Both the position numbers and the translations under genes were made by a program. The notes under the pieces were generated by a model, which saw nothing but the letters and a program-made list of their open reading frames with translations, did not search any database and was not told the DNA's origin. From contig JAUIJD010000004.1 of assembly GCA_030431475.1 (NCBI GenBank), forward strand, positions 115,194-179,193: DNA of 64,000 nt. Reading direction: 5' to 3'. Of this stretch, positions 1 to 45,115 are shown piece by piece (the stretch's first letter is position 1; the number at the start of each line of letters is the position of its first letter). Source of the DNA: Verrucomicrobiia bacterium. Its GTDB lineage: Bacteria > Verrucomicrobiota > Verrucomicrobiia > Verrucomicrobiales > Akkermansiaceae.

Positions 1-943
1 CGAGATAGTCGCCGTTCTCGTCCGGCTGCCACGGGAAGCCGTAGATCCGGTAGAAGCCCAGCACGTGGTCGATCCGGAAGACGTGGAAGATATCGACCAG
101 CTTGCCCACCCGCTGTCGCCACCACGGAAACCCCTCCCGCTCCATCTTCTCCCACCGGTAGAGCGGGATGCCCCAGTTCTGCCCCCATTTCCGGATGAAG
201 GCGTCGTGCTTGAACACGGTCTCCGGCGGCGCGCCGCCACACCAATCCAGATCGAAGTCGTCGCGACCGAAGAACACGTCGGCCGAGTTGCGGCTCACGC
301 CGATGGGAATGTCCCCCATCAGCTTCACCCCGCGCGCGTCGGCGTGCCGCCGGACTTCCCGCCACTGGCGGAAACACAGCCACTGGACCCATTCGAAATA
401 GCGGCACAACTCCCCTTTTCCGGCGAGCACCTCCCCGGCGCCTTCGACCAACTGCCACGCCTCGGGCCATTGATCCCACTTCTCGGTGCCCGCGAGTTCG
501 ACCAGCGCGCGGAAGGCGGCGAACTCCGGAAGCCAGCCCGACTCCGCCTCGCGAAAGGCTTCGAATTCACGATGAAATTCCTCCGAGGCGTCTTCCCAGC
601 CCTTCCACGCGCCCTCAAGCAGGCGATTCTTCCGTCGCCGGACCTCCCCGTAGTCGACCGGCGCCCGGTCATCCACGACCATTCCAGCGAGAGCGGTTTC
701 GTCGACTCCGGGAACGTCCTCCATCGCCAGGTAGATCGGATCGAGTGCCACCGACGAAATCGCGTTGTACGGGCTGTCGTCCGACCCGGTCTCGTTGATC
801 GGTAGAAGCTGGATCAGCCCGACCTCGTGCCCGGCCACCAACTCGATCCACTCGATCATCGACCGGGTGTCGCCGATGCCGAGCCCGCCCTCGCGGACCA
901 GCGAGAACGCGGGAAGCAGGATGGCCGCCTGTCGGGTTCCCAT
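1..943 (-). CDS. malQ: 4-alpha-glucanotransferase (amylomaltase), partial; runs off the left edge
   Basis: Manual translation from ATG at 943: MGTRQAAILLPAFSLVREGGLGIGD..IQLLPINETG..SPYNAISSVALDP..LMGDIPI, typical GH77 motifs. Not in the ORF track because there is no stop in the window. Confidence 0.85.
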   Translation of the reverse strand, partial: MGTRQAAILLPAFSLVREGGLGIGDTRSMIEWIELVAGHEVGLIQLLPINETGSDDSPYNAISSVALDPIYLAMEDVPGVDETALAGMVVDDRAPVDYGEVRRRKNRLLEGAWKGWEDASEEFHREFEAFREAESGWLPEFAAFRALVELAGTEKWDQWPEAWQLVEGAGEVLAGKGELCRYFEWVQWLCFRQWREVRRHADARGVKLMGDIPIGVSRNSADVFFGRDDFDLDWCGGAPPETVFKHDAFIRKWGQNWGIPLYRWEKMEREGFPWWRQRVGKLVDIFHVFRIDHVLGFYRIYGFPWQPDENGDYL

Positions 944-3122: not shown

Positions 3123-4094
3123 TCACCGAAACTGGACGTCGTAGCCATGCTCGCGGGAGAAACGGCGGGCGAACCGGGGCAGCCAGGTCGGACGCAGGAT
3201 GCGGCGCCGGCGCCTCCTGCCCGCCGTCATCGCGTCGAGCACCCCGTCGAGGACCCCACCGCGCCACCATGGGGCCGATGCCAGACCAGGAGGAAACTCG
3301 TAGCCCAGTTCCCCGAGCCACGCCGCCCGTTCGGCCGTCCAGTAGCGGCGACACCAGCGGCGCCGATACCAGTTGTCCACGGCTCCCTTCCACTTCTCGG
3401 AACTGTCCGCCGACACCTTGCGGTAGTCCTTCACCCCGGTCGAGTCCCCCAGCGTGCCTCCGGCCGACTCCGGCAACTCGGCGGTGGCCGACTCCGCCAG
3501 CTCCGGCCAACCCAGATAGGCCCCGAGTCGCCCGAGCTCCGCCTCCGGGTCGGCGACGAGATCCTCATAGCGGACCTCGCAGACTTCGTCCCGGTGGTCC
3601 GCGGCGAACCGGCGGAGGCGTTCGAGACCCTCGTGGAGGTCGATGCCGAACTCCTCCGGACACCAGCGGCCCCGGCGGTAGGTCGAGGACATCGAGGCCG
3701 CGACGGCCAGCGGATGACGCCACAGCACGATGAACTTTGCCTCCGGAAACGCCTTCCGGATCTCCTCCGCGATCAGCGTGTAGCGGGGCGTCTTGTCGAG
3801 GAACCATTCCTTGTCGCCGGCCAAGCCGTCGTAGATTCCCTGCATCAGCGACGCCACCCCGCCGCGGTAGCTCGCATCGAAACCGGGCCAGACCTTGCGG
3901 AGGTCGGCTTCGGCCGTTTCGACCAGCGACTCCCAGTACGTCGCCCGGCGCTGGATCACCTCATCCCCACCGAGGAACCGGAGGAGAAGACTCGGCTCGC
4001 CCAGCGTCGCACAACGCCCGCCAGCCAGCAGCAACCGTTGCAGCAATGTCGATCCCGCCCGGGGAAGCGAGAGGAGAAAAATCGGTCGCGCCAT
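3123..4094 (-). CDS. Sulfotransferase (Sulfotransfer_1/3 family)
   Basis: [44 protein letters not shown]. Confidence 0.85.
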
Positions 4095-4213
4095 GGTCCG
4101 TCACCATCACGGAGAGCTGACCCCGACAGGTCAAGCACCGGCACACGATTCCTCTTGCCCTGCCCTTGTCTCCGGCGGTGGTATCGGCGCACGCCGAACG
4201 AGGCCTCAAGGGT

Positions 4214-5284
4214 ATGAAGCTGATTGTCACGGGAGGGAGCGGATTCATCGGCAGCGCGATGGTCCGGCAGGCCCTTGCCGACGGTCACGAGGTCCTCAAC
4301 CTCGACAAGCTGACCTACGCGGCGAACCCCGCCTCTCTGGCCGACTTCGAGGACAATCCCCGCTACCATTTCGTGCAGGCGGATGTTGCCGATGCCACGG
4401 CCGTGGACCGGACATTCGAGAGATTCCGGCCCGACGCCCTCGTCCACCTTGCCGCCGAGTCGCACGTCGACCGTTCCATCGACCACTCCCGCGACTTCAT
4501 CGAGACCAATGTCGTCGGCACGCACGTCCTGCTGGAGGCCGCCCGCCGCCACGTCGACGGTCTGCCGTCCGGCCCCCGTGGGCGGTTCCGTTTCGTCCAC
4601 GTCTCGACCGACGAGGTCTTCGGAGACCTGGGCGAATCCGGCGGTGCCTTCACCGAGGAAACCCCCTACTCGCCCCGCTCCCCCTACTCGGCAAGCAAGG
4701 CGGCATCGGATCACCTGGTCCGGGCGTGGGGGCACACCTACGGACTTCCGGTGCTGATCACCAACTGCTCCAACAACTACGGCCCGCGCCAGTTTCCCGA
4801 GAAGCTGATCCCCCACATGATCCTCAACGCCCTCGCCGGCCGACCGCTGCCGGTCTATGGCGACGGCTCCCAGGTCCGCGACTGGTTGTTCGTCGAGGAT
4901 CACGCCCGGGCCCTGCTCGCGGTCCTCGACCACGGAAAGGCGGGCGAGACCTATGCGATCGGTGGCCGCTGCGAACAACGGAACATCGACCTTGTCCACC
5001 GCATCTGCGACCTGCTCGACGAGATGAGGCCCGAGCGGCGCCCCGAGGCCCACGGGTCGTTCCGGGGCCTCATCGAGTTCGTCGAGGATCGTCCCGGCCA
5101 CGACCGCCGCTACGCCATCGACTGTTCACGGATCGAAACGGAACTCGGATGGCAGCCGACCACCCGCTTCGACGAGGGCCTGCGTCGCACGGTCCGCTGG
5201 TACCTCGACCACGAGTCCTGGTGGCGCCCCATCCTCGAAGGATCCTACCAGCTCGAACGCATCGGAACCTCCGACCGGTCATGA
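4214..5284 (+). CDS. rfbB: dTDP-glucose 4,6-dehydratase
   Basis: [69 protein letters not shown]. Confidence 0.95.
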
Positions 5285-22492: not shown

Positions 22493-22562
22493 CCCAAGCA
22501 CCCAACCCCAGCACCCAACCCCAGCACCCAACCCCAGCACCCAACCCAAGCACCCAACCCCG
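22493..22562. repeat. Tandem 13-bp repeat (CCCAACCCCAGCA), about 5 copies
   Basis: Units start at 22501, 22514, 22527 (identical), 22540 (1 mismatch) and 22553 (partial); preceded by hairpin GGCTCCGC/GCGGAGCC at 22471-22494. Confidence 0.95.
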
Positions 22563-22677: not shown

Positions 22678-22887
22678 ATGGCTCGAACCGCAGGAAAAGC
22701 AAAGACTCGGAAGGCTGTCGCCAAACGCTTCAAGGTGACCGGCACCGGGAAGGTCCTGCGCCGGAAACAGGGCAAGCGCCACTTGCTTCAAAACAAGAAC
22801 CGCAAACGCAAGCGGAACTTGGGCAAGGCCACGCTCGTTTCCGACGCCGACATCAAGAATGTGAAGGAAAACCTTCCCTTCAGCTAA
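22678..22887 (+). CDS. rpmI: 50S ribosomal protein L35
   Basis: KAKTRKAVAKRFKVTGTGKVLR...GKRHLL..K..KRKRNL. Confidence 0.95.
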   Translation: MARTAGKAKTRKAVAKRFKVTGTGKVLRRKQGKRHLLQNKNRKRKRNLGKATLVSDADIKNVKENLPFS

Positions 22888-23032: not shown

Positions 23033-23410
23033 ATGCCACGCGCAACCAACAGCCCGGCCTCGCGCGCCCGCCGCAAGCGGGTGCTCCAGCGTGCCAAAGG
23101 CTTCCGCGGATTCCGCTCGAAGCTCTACCGCTACGCCAAGGACGCCGTCCGCAAGGCCCACACCTACGAATACCGTGACCGCAAGAAGCGGAAAGGCCAG
23201 TTCCGCCGTCTCTGGATCCAGCGCATCAGCGCCGCGACCCGCAACGAAGGCCTGACCTACTCCCGCTTCATCGAGGGGCTCAACGCCGCCGGCATCGAAG
23301 CCGACCGCAAGATCCTCGCCGACCTCGCCGTGACCGACGCCGAAGCCTTCAAGGCCATCGTCGATCAAGCCAAGGCCGCCCTCGAAAAGAAGAAGGAAGA
23401 AGCGGCCTGA
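23033..23410 (+). CDS. rplT: 50S ribosomal protein L20
   Basis: [44 protein letters not shown]. Confidence 0.97.
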
Positions 23411-23544: not shown

Positions 23545-23573
23545 TTGACCAGCACGCTCTCACCCGCTATGCC
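23545..23573 (+). promoter_or_regulatory. Putative sigma70 promoter of pheS
   Basis: TTGACC-N17-TATGCC between the rplT terminator and pheS. Confidence 0.4.
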
Positions 23574-23586
23574 CGCCCCGCCTCCC

Positions 23587-24603
23587 ATGAAGGACCAGAT
23601 CGAAGCCACCCAGACCGAAGCCCTCGAGCGCATCGGCAACATCGAGGATGCCCGCAGCTTGGAGGACGCCCGCGTCGCGATCCTCGGCAAGCAAGGCAGC
23701 CTGACCAAGCTCTCCGCCGGGATGCGCGAGGTCCCGAAGGAGCAGAAGGCCGAGGTCGGCCAGCTTCTGAATGCCGCCCGGCAGGCCATCACCGCCGCCC
23801 TCGAAGAGGCGAAGTCCGCGCTTCAGGCCGCGGCCGACTCCAAAGCACTCGAGGGCGTCGATCTCACCCTGCCCCCGCGCCCGCTTCACACCGGCTCCCT
23901 TCACCCGCTCACCCTCATTCGGGATGAGGCAACCTCCATTCTCCGGCGCATGGGATTCGCCCTGGCCGAGGGCCCGGAGATCGAAGACGAGTTCCACTGC
24001 TTCGACGCCCTCAACACCCCCGAGGACCACCCCGCCCGAAACGAGAAGGACACCTTCTATTTCGACTCCGGCAAGCTGCTCCGCACCCACACCTCCAGCG
24101 TCCAGATCCGGACCATGGAAACCGGCCGGCCGCCGGTGCGGATCATCGCTCCCGGGTCGGCCTACCGCCGCGATGAGATCGACGCCACCCACCTCTCGGT
24201 CTTCAACCAACTGGAAGGCCTCTACGTCGATGCCGACGTTTCCCTCGGAGACCTCAAGGGCACGTTGGAGTATTTCTTCCACGAGCTCTTCGGTTCCGAC
24301 ACCGACGTCCGCTTTCGCCCTCACTTCTTCCCCTTTACCGAACCGAGCTTCGAGATCGACGTGAAGCTCCACGTCAAAGGTCAGGCACCGAAGTGGATCG
24401 AGGTCGCCGGCTGCGGCATGGTCGATCCCGCCGTGTTCGAGTCCATCGATGCCGGCCGCAAGGACGACGCCTTCGATCCCGCGAAGGTCACCGGCTTCGC
24501 CTTCGGCATGGGACTCGACCGCCTCGCGATGATCCGCTGGGGCATCAAGGACATCCGCCTGCTCATCGAGAACGACGCCCGCTTCCTCCGGCAGTTCGCG
24601 TGA
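23587..24603 (+). CDS. pheS: Phenylalanine--tRNA ligase alpha subunit
   Basis: HPARNEKDTFY, LLRTHTS, YRRDEIDATH, FPFTEPSFE, EVAGCGMV, FAFGMGLDRLAM. Confidence 0.97.
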   Translation: MKDQIEATQTEALERIGNIEDARSLEDARVAILGKQGSLTKLSAGMREVPKEQKAEVGQLLNAARQAITAALEEAKSALQAAADSKALEGVDLTLPPRPLHTGSLHPLTLIRDEATSILRRMGFALAEGPEIEDEFHCFDALNTPEDHPARNEKDTFYFDSGKLLRTHTSSVQIRTMETGRPPVRIIAPGSAYRRDEIDATHLSVFNQLEGLYVDADVSLGDLKGTLEYFFHELFGSDTDVRFRPHFFPFTEPSFEIDVKLHVKGQAPKWIEVAGCGMVDPAVFESIDAGRKDDAFDPAKVTGFAFGMGLDRLAMIRWGIKDIRLLIENDARFLRQFA

Positions 24604-24609
24604 GGCGGG

Positions 24610-24641
24610 CAGATGGAAGATGGTGGATGGTAGATGATGGA
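24610..24641 (+). repeat. Heptamer array (NNGATGG)n, left arm of an inverted repeat
   Basis: CAGATGG AAGATGG TGGATGG TAGATGA TGGA; 24619-24636 is the exact reverse complement of 25063-25080. Confidence 0.9.
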
Positions 24642-25047
24642 AGCTGACGCCATGGACGACGCTCCTTTTGGATACAAGAAGTTGAGAATTTGGCAGGCCT
24701 CGAGGGAACTGGTGAATGCGATTCACCGGATGAGCTTGGAGAAGCTCCCCAAGTTCGAGCTCTACGAGGAAGGGATCCAGATTCGGCGTAGCATCAAGTC
24801 GGTGAAATCCAATATCGTGGAAGGATACGGCCGGCGGCGCTACAACGCGGAATACATCCGATTCCTCGATTTCTCGTATGCCTCCTGCCTCGAAACCATC
24901 GACCACCTCGAGACGCTCCACGAATCGGGCTCATTGAGCGACATCGATTTCTTTGAGGACCTCGAACGACGCCTCACCGATCTCTCCAAATCCATCTACC
25001 TGTTTATCAAGGGAGTGGAACGCCAACACGACCCGGATCGCACCTAG
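24634..25047 (+). CDS. Four-helix-bundle protein (23S rRNA IVS-protein / Avd-like family)
   Basis: YKKLRIWQ.S.EL, LPKFELY...QIRRS..SV.SNIVEGYGRR, RFL.FS.ASC.ET..HL; GC visibly lower than pheS/pheT. Confidence 0.9.
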   Translation: MMEADAMDDAPFGYKKLRIWQASRELVNAIHRMSLEKLPKFELYEEGIQIRRSIKSVKSNIVEGYGRRRYNAEYIRFLDFSYASCLETIDHLETLHESGSLSDIDFFEDLERRLTDLSKSIYLFIKGVERQHDPDRT

Positions 25048-25083
25048 GGATCCACCATCCTCCATCTACCATCCACCATCATG
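25048..25083 (+). repeat. Heptamer array (CCATCNN)n, right arm of an inverted repeat
   Basis: GGATCCA CCATCCT CCATCTA CCATCCA CCATCAT; the last unit overlaps the pheT ATG. Confidence 0.9.
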
Positions 25084-27456
25084 AATGTGTCGCTCAACTG
25101 GCTCGCCACCCACGTCGACCTCAAGGGCAAGTCGCCCGATGAACTGGACAAGCTCCTGACCTTCGCCGGAGTCGAGGTCGAGGGCATCGAAGTCAAGGGC
25201 GTGCCCTCCGACACCATCGTCGTCGCCCAGATCAAGGAAGCCGTCCAGCACCCGAATGCCGACAAGCTGAAGGTCACGCAAGTCGATGCCGGCGAGGGCC
25301 AGCTCCGACAGATCGTCTGCGGTGCGCAGAACTACCAGGTCGGTGACAAGGTGCCCTGCTGCCTCCCCGGCACCGACCTCGGGGGCTTCGTCATCAAGGA
25401 GGCGAAGATGCGTGGAGAGGAGTCGAAAGGCATGCTCGCCGCCGCTTCCGAAATCGGCCTGACCGATGTCGAGGACGGGCTGATGATTCTCCCGGAAGAT
25501 GCCGAGGTCGGTCGCCCGGTGAAGGAACTGTTCGATGCGGACGTGCTGCTTGAGGTCGAGGTCACCCCGAACCGCCCCGATCTCCTCAGCCACTACGGCA
25601 TGGCCCGTGAAATGGCGACCCTGCTCGAGGTGCCCTTCGTGGATCTTCAGATCCCCGAGCGTGGCGCGACGGTCGCCAAGGGCATCCGGCTCGAGGCGGC
25701 CGACGCCTGCCCCTACTACACCGCGGTCCGGATCTCCGGCGTCGAGGTGAAGGAAAGCCCCTCATGGCTCAAGGAACGCCTCGAGGCGATCGGCCTCCGC
25801 CCGATCAACAACATCGTCGACATCACCAACTTCGTGCTCCACGAACTGGGCCAGCCGCTGCACGCCTTCGACGACGCGAAGGTGTCGGGCGGAATCGTCG
25901 TCCGCACCGCGAAGGACGGCGAGGTGTTCCAAGCCCTCGACGAGGCCGACTACCCGCTGGAGCCCGAGGACTGCGTGATTTCCGATGAATCCGGCGCCGC
26001 CCTGGCACTGGGAGGCGTGATGGGCGGACTCGACAGCGGGGTGGTTGAAGGCACCACCAACATCCTGCTAGAATCGGCTTACTTCACCCCCTCCCGCATC
26101 CGCCGCACCTCGCGGCGCACCGCGCTGATGTCCGATTCTTCCTATCGCTTCGAACGCGGAGTCGACCCGGCCGGTGTCGACCGGGCCTCGGCGCTGGCGG
26201 TCAAACTGATCCTCGAGCTCGCAGGTGGCACCGTCGAAGGCTCCACGATGGCAGCCGGCGAAGCGCCCGTCGTGACGACGGCGGTGGGCCTCCATCTCGA
26301 CCAGCTCGACCAGCTCACGGGCGGCAGCATCTCCCACGACGATGCGGCGTCCATCCTCACCCGCCTCGGCCTGCGGAAGGACGAGGCCGGCCTCTGGGAG
26401 GTTCCTTCCTTCCGGGCCGATCTGCAGCGCCACATCGACCTCGTGGAGGAAATCGTCCGGGTGAAGGGCCTGGACGCCGTTCCGTCACGCTTGCGCGGCA
26501 GCTTCGTCCCCTCCAGTGCCGTCGATCATGCCTACGACGCCGACATGCGCCTGCGCCACCGGCTGGCAGGGCTTGGTTTCCACGAGTGCCAGACCATCAA
26601 GTTGATCTCCGACGCGCAGCTCGCGGATGCCCTGCCGTTGAAGCCGCTGCGCGATGGCGACACCATCCGGGTGAGCCTCCCGCTCAGCGAGGATCACGCC
26701 GTGATGCGCCCGAGTCTGGCGCCGGGGCTGATTGCCTCGGCAGCCCGCAACCTCCGCCAGGGAGCCGAGAGCCTGCGGCTGTTCGAAATGGGACGCTTCT
26801 TCCGGAATGCCGGTGGCGGAAAGGCCCGGGACCTCGAGTCCGACAGCCTGGCGATTCTCCTCTCGGGCCCCCGCCGGCCGGCGGGCTGGGACGGCAACCC
26901 CGGAACCCAAGACCTCTACGATCTGCTCGCCGTGGTGCAGGCGTTGATCCCCGGCGAAACCGTGCGTCTCTCCCCTCGTGAACGCGACGGTTGGGCACTC
27001 GGTGCCGACCTTCAGGCCGCCGGTCAGAATCTCGGATCCTTCGCGATGCTACTCCCCGCCCGCCAGCGGGAACTGGATGCCACGGCGCCGATCTTTGTCG
27101 CGGAGATCGACCTCCAGAAGCTTCGCAAGCTGTCCGCCGTTTCGACCGAAATCGACGACCTCCCCCAGTTCCCGGGCTCGAGCCGCGACGCGGCGATCGA
27201 TGCGCCCGTCGATCTCCCCAACGCCGAGATCGAGAAGGCCCTCGCCAAGGTAAAGGAGCCCCTGCTGGCGAGCTACGAGTGCTTCGACCTGTTCGTCGAT
27301 CCCAGCGGGGAGCGCCTCGCCGCCGACCGCAAGTCGATCGCCTACCGGCTCCACTATCGTTCGGCGGAGAAAACGCTGAAGACGAAGCAGGTCGATCAGG
27401 CTCACCAAGGCATCCTCGACCACCTGACGAAGAGCCTCCCGATCCGCTTCCGCTGA
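25081..27456 (+). CDS. pheT: Phenylalanine--tRNA ligase beta subunit
   Basis: QHPNADKL, IVCGAQN, EVTPNRPDLLSHYGMARE, INNIVDITNFV, SSYRFERGVD, C-terminal KSIAYRL.YR...KTL. Confidence 0.97.
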   Translation: MNVSLNWLATHVDLKGKSPDELDKLLTFAGVEVEGIEVKGVPSDTIVVAQIKEAVQHPNADKLKVTQVDAGEGQLRQIVCGAQNYQVGDKVPCCLPGTDLGGFVIKEAKMRGEESKGMLAAASEIGLTDVEDGLMILPEDAEVGRPVKELFDADVLLEVEVTPNRPDLLSHYGMAREMATLLEVPFVDLQIPERGATVAKGIRLEAADACPYYTAVRISGVEVKESPSWLKERLEAIGLRPINNIVDITNFVLHELGQPLHAFDDAKVSGGIVVRTAKDGEVFQALDEADYPLEPEDCVISDESGAALALGGVMGGLDSGVVEGTTNILLESAYFTPSRIRRTSRRTALMSDSSYRFERGVDPAGVDRASALAVKLILELAGGTVEGSTMAAGEAPVVTTAVGLHLDQLDQLTGGSISHDDAASILTRLGLRKDEAGLWEVPSFRADLQRHIDLVEEIVRVKGLDAVPSRLRGSFVPSSAVDHAYDADMRLRHRLAGLGFHECQTIKLISDAQLADALPLKPLRDGDTIRVSLPLSEDHAVMRPSLAPGLIASAARNLRQGAESLRLFEMGRFFRNAGGGKARDLESDSLAILLSGPRRPAGWDGNPGTQDLYDLLAVVQALIPGETVRLSPRERDGWALGADLQAAGQNLGSFAMLLPARQRELDATAPIFVAEIDLQKLRKLSAVSTEIDDLPQFPGSSRDAAIDAPVDLPNAEIEKALAKVKEPLLASYECFDLFVDPSGERLAADRKSIAYRLHYRSAEKTLKTKQVDQAHQGILDHLTKSLPIRFR

Positions 27457-37126: not shown

Positions 37127-45115
<7,989 letters not shown>

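Follow-up and report, generated by a model that had tools for sequence, protein, structure and literature searches.

A four-helix-bundle gene between inverted heptamer arrays, inserted at the pheS-pheT junction of a Haloferula-like verrucomicrobium and at other operon junctions

In a 64,000-nucleotide stretch of verrucomicrobial DNA (contig JAUIJD010000004.1; hereafter, the window), pheS and pheT, which code for the two subunits of phenylalanine-tRNA ligase, are separated by a cassette in which a small four-helix-bundle gene lies between two inverted arrays of tandem heptamers. As judged from related loci, the gene and its arrays form a unit that recurs, in sense orientation, at many operon junctions that are unrelated to one another and belong to different phyla. 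The encoded protein is a member of PF05635/TIGR02436, a family whose best-known members are the open reading frames (ORFs) of 23S rRNA intervening sequences (IVSs) and, more distantly, Avd, a protein of diversity-generating retroelements (DGRs). The best reading, which we consider probable, is that an IVS-type cassette resides in the spacer of the pheS-pheT mRNA. All functional statements in this report are inferences from sequence.

Cassette anatomy and the encoded protein

A first-pass annotation of this DNA described a discrete, lower-GC cassette inserted between two operon genes, and this description holds. The pheS-pheT spacer unit spans positions 24604-25080 (477 bp), with a GC content of 0.543 versus 0.665 for the window. 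GC content at third codon positions is 0.74 in the cassette ORF, 0.87 in pheS and 0.85 in pheT. Inverted heptamers do flank the gene on both sides, as a (NNGATNN)4 array and a (NNATCNN)5 array. The left array begins 8 nt past the pheS stop and has GAT units at 24612, 24619, 24626 and 24633, three of which read GATGG and the last GATGA; the right array has five ATC units. The perfect 18-bp inverted repeat that had been noted was recovered (24619-24636 and 25063-25080), and further registers of the arms also pair (21 nt at 90%, 24 nt at 88% and 37 nt at 78%). These two are the only period-7 GAT or ATC arrays of at least three units in the 64 kb, and shuffled sequences gave 0-0.1.

No promoter-like or terminator-like site was found in the 477-bp unit. 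Searches with Rfam families, including rRNA, gave no match around the cassette or in 20 related loci, and an rRNA gene in or near the cassette was found at 0 of 20 loci tested. The neighbors of the cassette are rpmI, rplT, pheS, pheT, a small ORF and rpsT. Neither the cassette nor its adjoining genes encode a transposase, recombinase or reverse transcriptase, and no target-site duplication is visible at the cassette junctions. Because the adjacent genes include no reverse transcriptase, the cassette is not a DGR; this statement covers the adjoining genes, a whole-window scan for reverse transcriptase or for template/variable repeats not having been made. PHROG and PADLOC gave no match, so a link to phages or defense is unsupported, and no relative of the cassette gene was found in IMG/VR viral contigs. 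A weak tblastn match at window positions 201-332 (E=0.02, 44 aa) was considered as a second copy of the cassette and, since it has no ORF or arrays, treated as chance.

The cassette ORF scores 83.9 bits against PF05635 (cut-off, 33.8) and 85 bits against TIGR02436 (cut-off, 24). The family has no assigned function and is very large, with more than 5,000 clusters from one search. An AlphaFold2 model (pLDDT, 87.2) has helices at residues 6-30, 34-56, 66-91 and 98-125. Foldseek aligned it with XCC0516 (2GSC; TM scores, 0.76/0.88; root-mean-square deviation (rmsd), 1.2 A) and BT_0352 (2RLD; 0.75/0.87), and a phmmer search of the PDB also reached 2GSC (E=6e-8). The crystal entries 2GSC and 2RLD contain five chains each. 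A conserved motif, (G)xxRxxxSxxxNxxE, was noted in the family by Zhang and Ye (2014, PMC3936711). Its residues are present here as R46, S50, N54 and E57, with Q at the first position, as in XCC0516; across 23 members drawn from several phyla, no variation is seen at S50 or E57 and almost none at R46 or N54.

The gene had been annotated as a 137-aa four-helix-bundle ORF whose start codon is overlapped by the left arm. Family and fold were right, but the protein is 131 aa long. Since database homologues of 130-131 aa begin at ATG 24652 (M7 of the 137-aa ORF), the alignments place the start at 24652 and not at 24634, that is, 16 nt beyond the last GAT unit and outside the arm. The sequence 5' of ATG 24652 is conserved among the closest relatives, and the in-frame ATGs at 24634 and 24637, which sit within the array, have no homologue support.

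The cassette in relatives and at other operon junctions

A genome scan with exact peptide patterns, taking one genome per species, yielded 344 relatives, for which the best 80 loci were fetched; most of the loci compared come from metagenome-assembled genomes (MAGs). The pheS-gene-pheT arrangement was found in 37 of the 80 fetched loci. All 37 are from the Haloferula/Luteolibacter-type group, and therefore the window organism is, by this comparison, a Haloferula-like verrucomicrobium; source labels of the carriers vary (Akkermansiaceae, Verrucomicrobiaceae, Verrucomicrobiia). Carriers in culture include Luteolibacter marinus NBU1238, Haloferula sargassicola NBRC 104335, H. chungangensis and L. 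yonseiensis.

A left GAT-type array and a right ATC-type array are present in 37/37 of these pheST carriers. The unit sequence and copy number differ between carrier species: in one locus (L015), about seven GGATCGT units precede about six of AGATAGA type, and another (L036) has CGATGTT units. Among the 36 carriers scored, the number of units is 3-14, most often 5, and every carrier has at least three on each side. The geometry is constant. Median spacings are 5 nt from the pheS stop to the first left unit, 8 nt from the end of the last left unit to the cassette-gene ATG, and 8 nt (range, 0-20) from the end of the last right unit to the pheT ATG; the inserts are 475-622 bp long.

Pairwise distances of the bundle protein follow those of PheS+PheT (r=0.80), its mean divergence is close to that of the host proteins (0.265 versus 0.232 for PheS+PheT), and the median dN/dS of its gene is 0.118, a value that reflects purifying selection. 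Because of these three results, the comparison shows a single old gain in the Haloferula/Luteolibacter ancestor, followed by vertical descent, and indicates that the cassette protein is a working protein kept by purifying selection. The suggestion in the first-pass annotation that this is a mobile cassette thus needs dividing: the unit does occur at many sites across phyla, but at pheS-pheT it is old, vertically inherited and not recently mobile.

Outgroups were reached by a search with PheS as the query. The empty allele that had been anticipated in relatives exists in Haloferula helveola, in which pheS and pheT are 24 nt apart (TCCCCCAACGGACTCTCCAACGTC), without arrays, and the rpmI-rplT-pheS-pheT-rpsT synteny is kept. 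In H. luteola, the pheS-pheT spacer is 265 nt long and has no arrays, and neither blastn nor tblastn detected a cassette remnant in it. Both species nest among carriers in neighbor-joining trees built on two proteins (bootstrap, 198/200), and these trees therefore show that the cassette was lost secondarily, at least twice, and that it is dispensable in two lineages. The annotation had also remarked, correctly, that pheT has no Shine-Dalgarno sequence. Because the cassette-free H. helveola allele also has none before pheT, the lack is, on this comparison, native and not caused by the cassette. In two Luteolibacter species, and likewise in isolate N1E253 and in Roseibacillus, pheS is not adjacent to pheT.

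Several side observations concern this region in other genomes. In Rubritalea squalenifaciens (L082, 4017-6973), about 3 kb of small genes (DUF6036, DUF6899 and a helix-turn-helix protein) lie between pheS and pheT, so the junction hosts a different insertion in another genus. Two Luteolibacter species and one Haloferula species (L084, L085 and L087, about 1900-2950) have a nitric-oxide-synthase-family gene (PF02898) at the rplT-pheS junction; this gene is absent from the window and from H. helveola. In one Haloferula MAG (L044, 3001-3394), a +1 frameshift falls within an A7 run of the bundle gene and the right array is expanded to 11 units, a state that is either an assembly error or early decay; the nearest neighbor of this locus in the tree is the empty-site H. 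helveola.

The other 43 fetched loci code for proteins with 53-65% identity to that of the window and represent about 35 contexts. They represent at least seven other lineages and come from MAGs labeled Desulfobacterales/Deltaproteobacteria, Bacteroidota, Ignavibacteria, Pirellulaceae, Kiritimatiellae, Neomarinimicrobiota, Calditrichaceae and other Verrucomicrobiota, and nearly all share the inverted period-7 arrays. Across 81 loci, the mean chain length is 5.2 units for GAT on the left and 4.9 for ATC on the right, versus 1.3 in the wrong orientation, and 77 loci have at least three units on at least one side. The unit logo over these loci is [T/G][G/A]GAT[N][C/G], in which GAT is kept in 96-99%, even in units outside the chain definition. 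An unbiased autocorrelation has peaks at lags 7 and 14 only (0.42-0.49 versus about 0.25; at lag 7, 0.43-0.49). Unit numbers outside the pheST group run from 1 to 12, with no preference for 5. A match between array length and a pentameric protein was considered, given the mode of 5 among the pheST carriers; these carriers are related and counts elsewhere are 1-12, so the mode is not taken as evidence.

The expectation that other family members would also be flanked by inverted 7-mer arrays was borne out further afield by distant plasmid members. Eleven of these, with 32-45% identity, are on cyanobacterial and Riemerella plasmids (Nostoc, Calothrix and Anabaena are among the hosts), and their heptamers include GGGAACA, GGGTGTR, GGCAGAR, GGTTYAA and GGTGACA; one member has direct AAAAGCY arrays, and one has no arrays. 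Distant members that share a unit are each other's closest proteins (72-90% identity), and therefore the gene and its arrays travel together.

Two loci have unusual architectures. In one (L050, 1162-1400), about 100 nt without a bundle gene separate a left GAT array from a right ATC array; this gene-less pair lies about 1.6 kb from a full cassette and looks like a mini version of it. In the other (L077, 2680-4270), outer arrays at 2680-2790 and 4200-4270 enclose a complete cassette together with two small, overlapping ORFs at 3541-3783 and 3780-4095, and this locus is either a nested insertion or one with cargo.

Homologues had also been predicted to lie between operon genes, and a sense orientation between co-directional genes was seen at 27 of the 34 loci for which both neighbors could be called. 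Pooling hand-de-duplicated contexts with the plasmid members gave 27/35 (p=4e-7 against an expected 0.35, a baseline that is our own estimate from the usual share of co-directional neighbor pairs). Neighbor calls in high-GC loci are error-prone. Because the greedy ORF method that was used miscalled 7 of 32 known pheST cases, the true share is probably higher than 27/34. Five host junctions were confirmed with Pfam: a PAPS_reduct gene and an EF-Tu-type GTPase gene (cysD/cysN-like); dxr and an M50 protease with PDZ domains (rseP-like); a Zn-dehydrogenase and a class I/II aminotransferase (tdh/kbl-like); the FAD/2Fe-2S and molybdopterin subunits of a xanthine-dehydrogenase-type enzyme; and two FAD oxidoreductases (glpA/glpB-like by our reading). 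Plasmid members add the cas6/cas4 junction, at which Anabaena sp. 90 (L098) also has a cassette, of a different type.

The features of the locus are collected in Table 1. The rpmI-rplT-pheS order is found in relatives as well (Pfam matches Ribosomal_L35p and L20). The longest pheS ORF, which ends with a TGA at 24601-24603, is the one tabulated; homologues of 338 aa align from its residue 15, and from the extents of these alignments the true start is likely to be 23587. Elsewhere in the window are two further repeats. A 13-nt tandem repeat, CCCCAGCACCCAA, occupies 22493-22561 in the C-rich spacer 5' of rpmI (about 5.3 copies, 94% matches), and a 2662-aa ORF at 37127-45115 on the minus strand is full of 9/18/27-nt tandem repeats and resembles a gene for a giant repetitive protein.

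Table 1. Features of the pheS-pheT locus (window coordinates)
Feature	Position	Strand	Basis or remark
rpmI	22678-22887	+	ORF; upstream member of co-directional cluster
rplT	23033-23410	+	ORF; upstream member of co-directional cluster
pheS (phenylalanine-tRNA ligase alpha subunit)	23545-24603	+	PF01409 (5.5e-91), PF02912
Left spacer with left heptamer array	24604-24651	+	Sequence inspection, repeat search
Left arm of perfect 18-bp inverted repeat	24619-24636	+	
Four-helix-bundle gene (131 aa + stop), PF05635/TIGR02436	24652-25047	+	Profile matches, AlphaFold2 model, Foldseek
Right heptamer array, five ATC units	25050-25080	+	Ends flush with pheT ATG
Right arm of perfect 18-bp inverted repeat	25063-25080	+	
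pheT (phenylalanine-tRNA ligase beta subunit)	25081-27456	+	PF03483, PF17759, PF01588, PF03147, PF03484

Arm pairing, the favored reading and its alternatives

Both strands of the unit are predicted to fold with the arms paired. Duplexes between cognate arms (-60.6 kcal/mol) are stronger than those between non-cognate arms (-44.5 kcal/mol), and the cognate duplex is the stronger in 71 of 79 loci. Across the 18 Luteolibacter-type loci that align well, pairing in a 20-pair stem reaches 95.8%, and the stem contains 19 doubly changed cells, compared with 7.6 expected (0/500 shuffles), with far lower values in slid controls. Because doubly changed cells exceed both the expectation and the slid controls, the arms co-evolve.

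Several results count against the idea that this co-evolution reflects pairing in the sense transcript. If sense-RNA pairing were selected, G:U mismatches should outnumber A:C mismatches; register-neutral alignments have 74 sense G:U mismatches, 93 that are G:U only in the antisense strand (A:C in the sense strand) and 150 transversions, and therefore this test fails. At 33 of 37 pheST loci, the antisense strand forms the stabler duplex; these loci, being related, are not 33 independent events, and the imbalance arises because of a conserved A:C mismatch beside the start of the cassette gene. Only at 15 of 78 loci does the cognate arm outrank all other partners, so that much of the complementarity stems from shared repeat grammar. 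Left and right unit numbers are uncorrelated (rho, 0.25). On a Pseudanabaena galeata plasmid (L097), a cassette between cas6 and cas4 has direct arrays, with about 14 copies of AAAAGCT on the left side and (AAAAGCC)n on the other. Finally, homogenization or conversion between arms at the DNA level could equally give the same co-variation. The earlier proposal that the arms pair in the mRNA is therefore retained in part: pairing in the transcript is physically expected, but these comparisons leave selection for it unproven.

The conserved A:C mismatch lies in the left unit next to the four-helix-bundle start (left, GATAGAAGA; right, TCTTCCATC; for example, at column 53 of alignment A3), and may keep the gene start region partly open. 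Two apparent signals were discarded. The stem drawn by RNAalifold seemed to have far more G:U than A:C, but that count was biased, since the A:C column had been left unpaired. A split Shine-Dalgarno sequence, in which the stem would bring a GAGG at the pheS stop to the pheT AUG, was also rejected, as purine richness is general among left arrays and the empty allele, too, lacks a Shine-Dalgarno sequence.

Pairing alone cannot explain a GAT every 7 nt with four drifting positions, or units that are specific to protein clades. Because the GAT core is kept while the other positions drift, and because the unit changes with the protein clade, these patterns imply that something reads the repeats sequence-specifically. 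The likeliest reader is the cassette's own protein; we hold this tentatively, at somewhat less than even chances, and the protein is putatively ring-forming, its solved relatives having crystallized with five chains.

The closest parallel that guides our reading is the 23S rRNA IVS, to which the first-pass annotation rightly pointed. In Coxiella burnetii, this is a 428-nt element with an S23p ORF in its loop and with two to three tandem GACAGAT heptamers, strain-variable in copy number, just 5' of the ORF's ATG; RNase III cleaves its stem where the first GACAGAT repeat begins (Warrier et al. 2016, PMC4990558). Orthologues of S23p also reside in IVSs of Leptospira, Brucella and Xanthomonas (PMC4990558). 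The cassette resembles such ORF-bearing IVSs in having a PF05635/S23p ORF in sense orientation in the loop, inverted repeats that would pair as a long stem, AGAT-core heptamers in tandem and in variable copy number by the ORF start, no mobility enzyme, and a length of about 430-500 nt. It differs in its host, which is an intercistronic mRNA spacer and not helix 9, 25 or 45 of 23S rRNA, and in its protein: purifying selection acts on it here, but the Coxiella ORF is decaying and does not appear to be translated. Stem cleavage by RNase III, described for Coxiella, is putative in the present cassette. Because it fails the defining 23S rRNA location, we file the cassette as an IVS-type variant and not as an IVS proper.

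Under the IVS-type reading, the cassette would be transcribed as part of pheS-cassette-pheT, since the unit has no promoter or terminator. The arms would pair in the transcript, over 18 perfect base pairs extendable to about 37, and this pairing would loop out the ORF and set the pheS stop beside the pheT start. With roughly even chances, and by analogy with the rRNA versions, the duplex would then be processed by RNase III, giving separate pheS, cassette and pheT RNA pieces. Alternatively, ribosomes terminating on pheS could open the base of the stem; the arm begins about 5 nt past the stop, and the partner arm adjoins the pheT AUG. With either route, the pheT start would be freed and the insertion would be harmless to pheT expression.

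That the cassette moves as DNA is possible, though rather unlikely. The arrays would then be subterminal binding or recombination sites, or single-stranded-DNA hairpins, used by an enzyme acting in trans; the bundle protein would be an end-binding or synapsis factor, and RNA pairing a by-product. Subterminal repeat sites of this sort are present at the ends of Tn7, Mu and Ac/Ds. Such a cassette would account for the presence of one cassette type, gene and own unit flavor together, at non-homologous sites in different genomes and phyla, for its clean absence from H. helveola, and for the gene-less pair of L050 and the nested pair with extra genes of L077. The core GAT, moreover, is conserved on both arms, and the mismatches lack strand bias, as a DNA-level constraint predicts. 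Against this stand the missing transposase, recombinase and reverse transcriptase in the cassette and adjoining genes, the lack of a visible target-site duplication, of a second copy or solo array in the 64-kb window and of any relative found in IMG/VR viral contigs, and the fact that the cassette stayed at pheS-pheT across 37 species. The strong intra-operon sense bias is likewise unexpected for a DNA transposon with its own promoter. A comparison with MITE-like non-autonomous transposons (terminal inverted repeats, target-site duplication, several dispersed copies) points both ways: inverted arms are present, and other genomes have solo and nested array pairs, but the junctions have no evident duplication and the 64 kb hold no other copy.

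We regard as improbable a third explanation, that of a domesticated regulator. Here, a ring protein would bind (GAU-N4)n in the operon RNA, compete with arm pairing, and so tune its own translation and that of pheT, and hence the PheS:PheT ratio. Long retention, with purifying selection and a rate that resembles the host genes', would suit this role, as would arrays that abut the pheS stop and the pheT start in every carrier and that have at least three units per side (mode, 5) in all 36 scored. The five chains per entry of 2GSC and 2RLD and the triplet core with its fixed 4-nt spacer are also in keeping with it, and many other host junctions join subunit genes of one enzyme. However, two Haloferula species live without the cassette, pheS and pheT are unlinked in other Luteolibacter species, unit numbers elsewhere do not favor 5, and the unrelated contexts of the same cassette are better suited to a selfish element.

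An ordinary small gene with chance or slippage repeats and no functional unit is very improbable: although heptanucleotide tandem repeats are reported to be the most abundant short-repeat class in most bacterial genomes surveyed (PMC4679880), no such arrays occur elsewhere in the window (shuffles, 0-0.1), the inverted orientation around the gene is fixed in 77/81 loci across phyla, and the arms co-vary, while a variant raised earlier, ribosomal bypass from the pheS stop to the pheT start, is unneeded, as pheT has its own ATG and full-length homologues, and nothing points to it.

Comparison with other systems and significance

Genes annotated as 23S_rRNA_IVP have been described inside cas operons, for example between cmr3 and cmr2, in a report that does not mention repeats (Zhang and Ye 2014, PMC3936711). 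Among papers covered in full text, we found none that generalizes inverted heptamer arrays or operon junctions for PF05635 genes; older IVS papers in subscription journals lie outside this coverage, and earlier mention is possible.

The relationship to Avd, which had also been suggested, is supported by fold: Foldseek aligned the model with Avd (4DWL) at TM scores of 0.70/0.81 and an rmsd of 2.3 A. The two differ in sequence (11% identity), and no reverse transcriptase is present among the genes adjoining the cassette. We know of no Avd genes that are flanked by heptamer arrays.

Other systems are analogies or leads, not classes to which the cassette belongs, and the same applies to transposon subterminal repeats. 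RAYT/REP (REPIN) systems share a single small gene between inverted copies of a short repeat that is also found without the gene, vertical persistence, and a repeat flavor tied to the protein clade. RAYTs are homologues of HUH transposases, with a plausible catalytic role, and REPs are palindromes of 20-40 nt; the cassette differs in having a helical bundle without known catalysis and tandem 7-mers. TRAP binds as an 11-mer to GAG/UAG triplets with 2-3-nt spacers, and HutP as a hexamer to UAG-N4 repeats. The analogy lies in a triplet core (here, GAT with a 4-nt spacer) at fixed spacing by a start codon, and in a protein whose relatives form a ring. The fold is unrelated, however, a complementary array lies across the gene here, and reading of the repeat is putative in the cassette.

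Cyanobacterial heptamers of the STRR type, which Mazel et al. reportedly described in 1990, are dispersed tandem 7-nt repeats in intergenic DNA with no associated gene. Like the cassette arrays, they are tandem, intergenic and of period 7, and distant PF05635 genes on Nostoc, Calothrix and Anabaena plasmids are themselves flanked by inverted heptamer arrays.

A wider generalization may be offered tentatively. PF05635 proteins could be sequence-specific readers of 7-nt tandem repeats and, together with inverted arrays, form widespread, so far unnamed, enzyme-less cassettes that colonize transcribed spacers, whether rRNA helices or operon junctions, and that are neutralized by arm pairing at the RNA level. 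If true, this would explain at least part of the STRR-type arrays, suggesting a possible origin for the cyanobacterial heptamer repeats, and the Avd/S23p superfamily would gain a general function in binding nucleic-acid repeats.

For annotation, the arrays account for odd long spacers within essential operons, and a "hypothetical protein" becomes a concrete, testable system: a cassette with inverted period-7 arrays and clade-tied units, in sense orientation at operon junctions. The questions that it raises are whether the ring protein binds the heptamers, whether RNase III cuts the mRNA stem, and how a cassette without an enzyme reaches new sites. Cultured carriers and empty-site sister species are available for the experiments.

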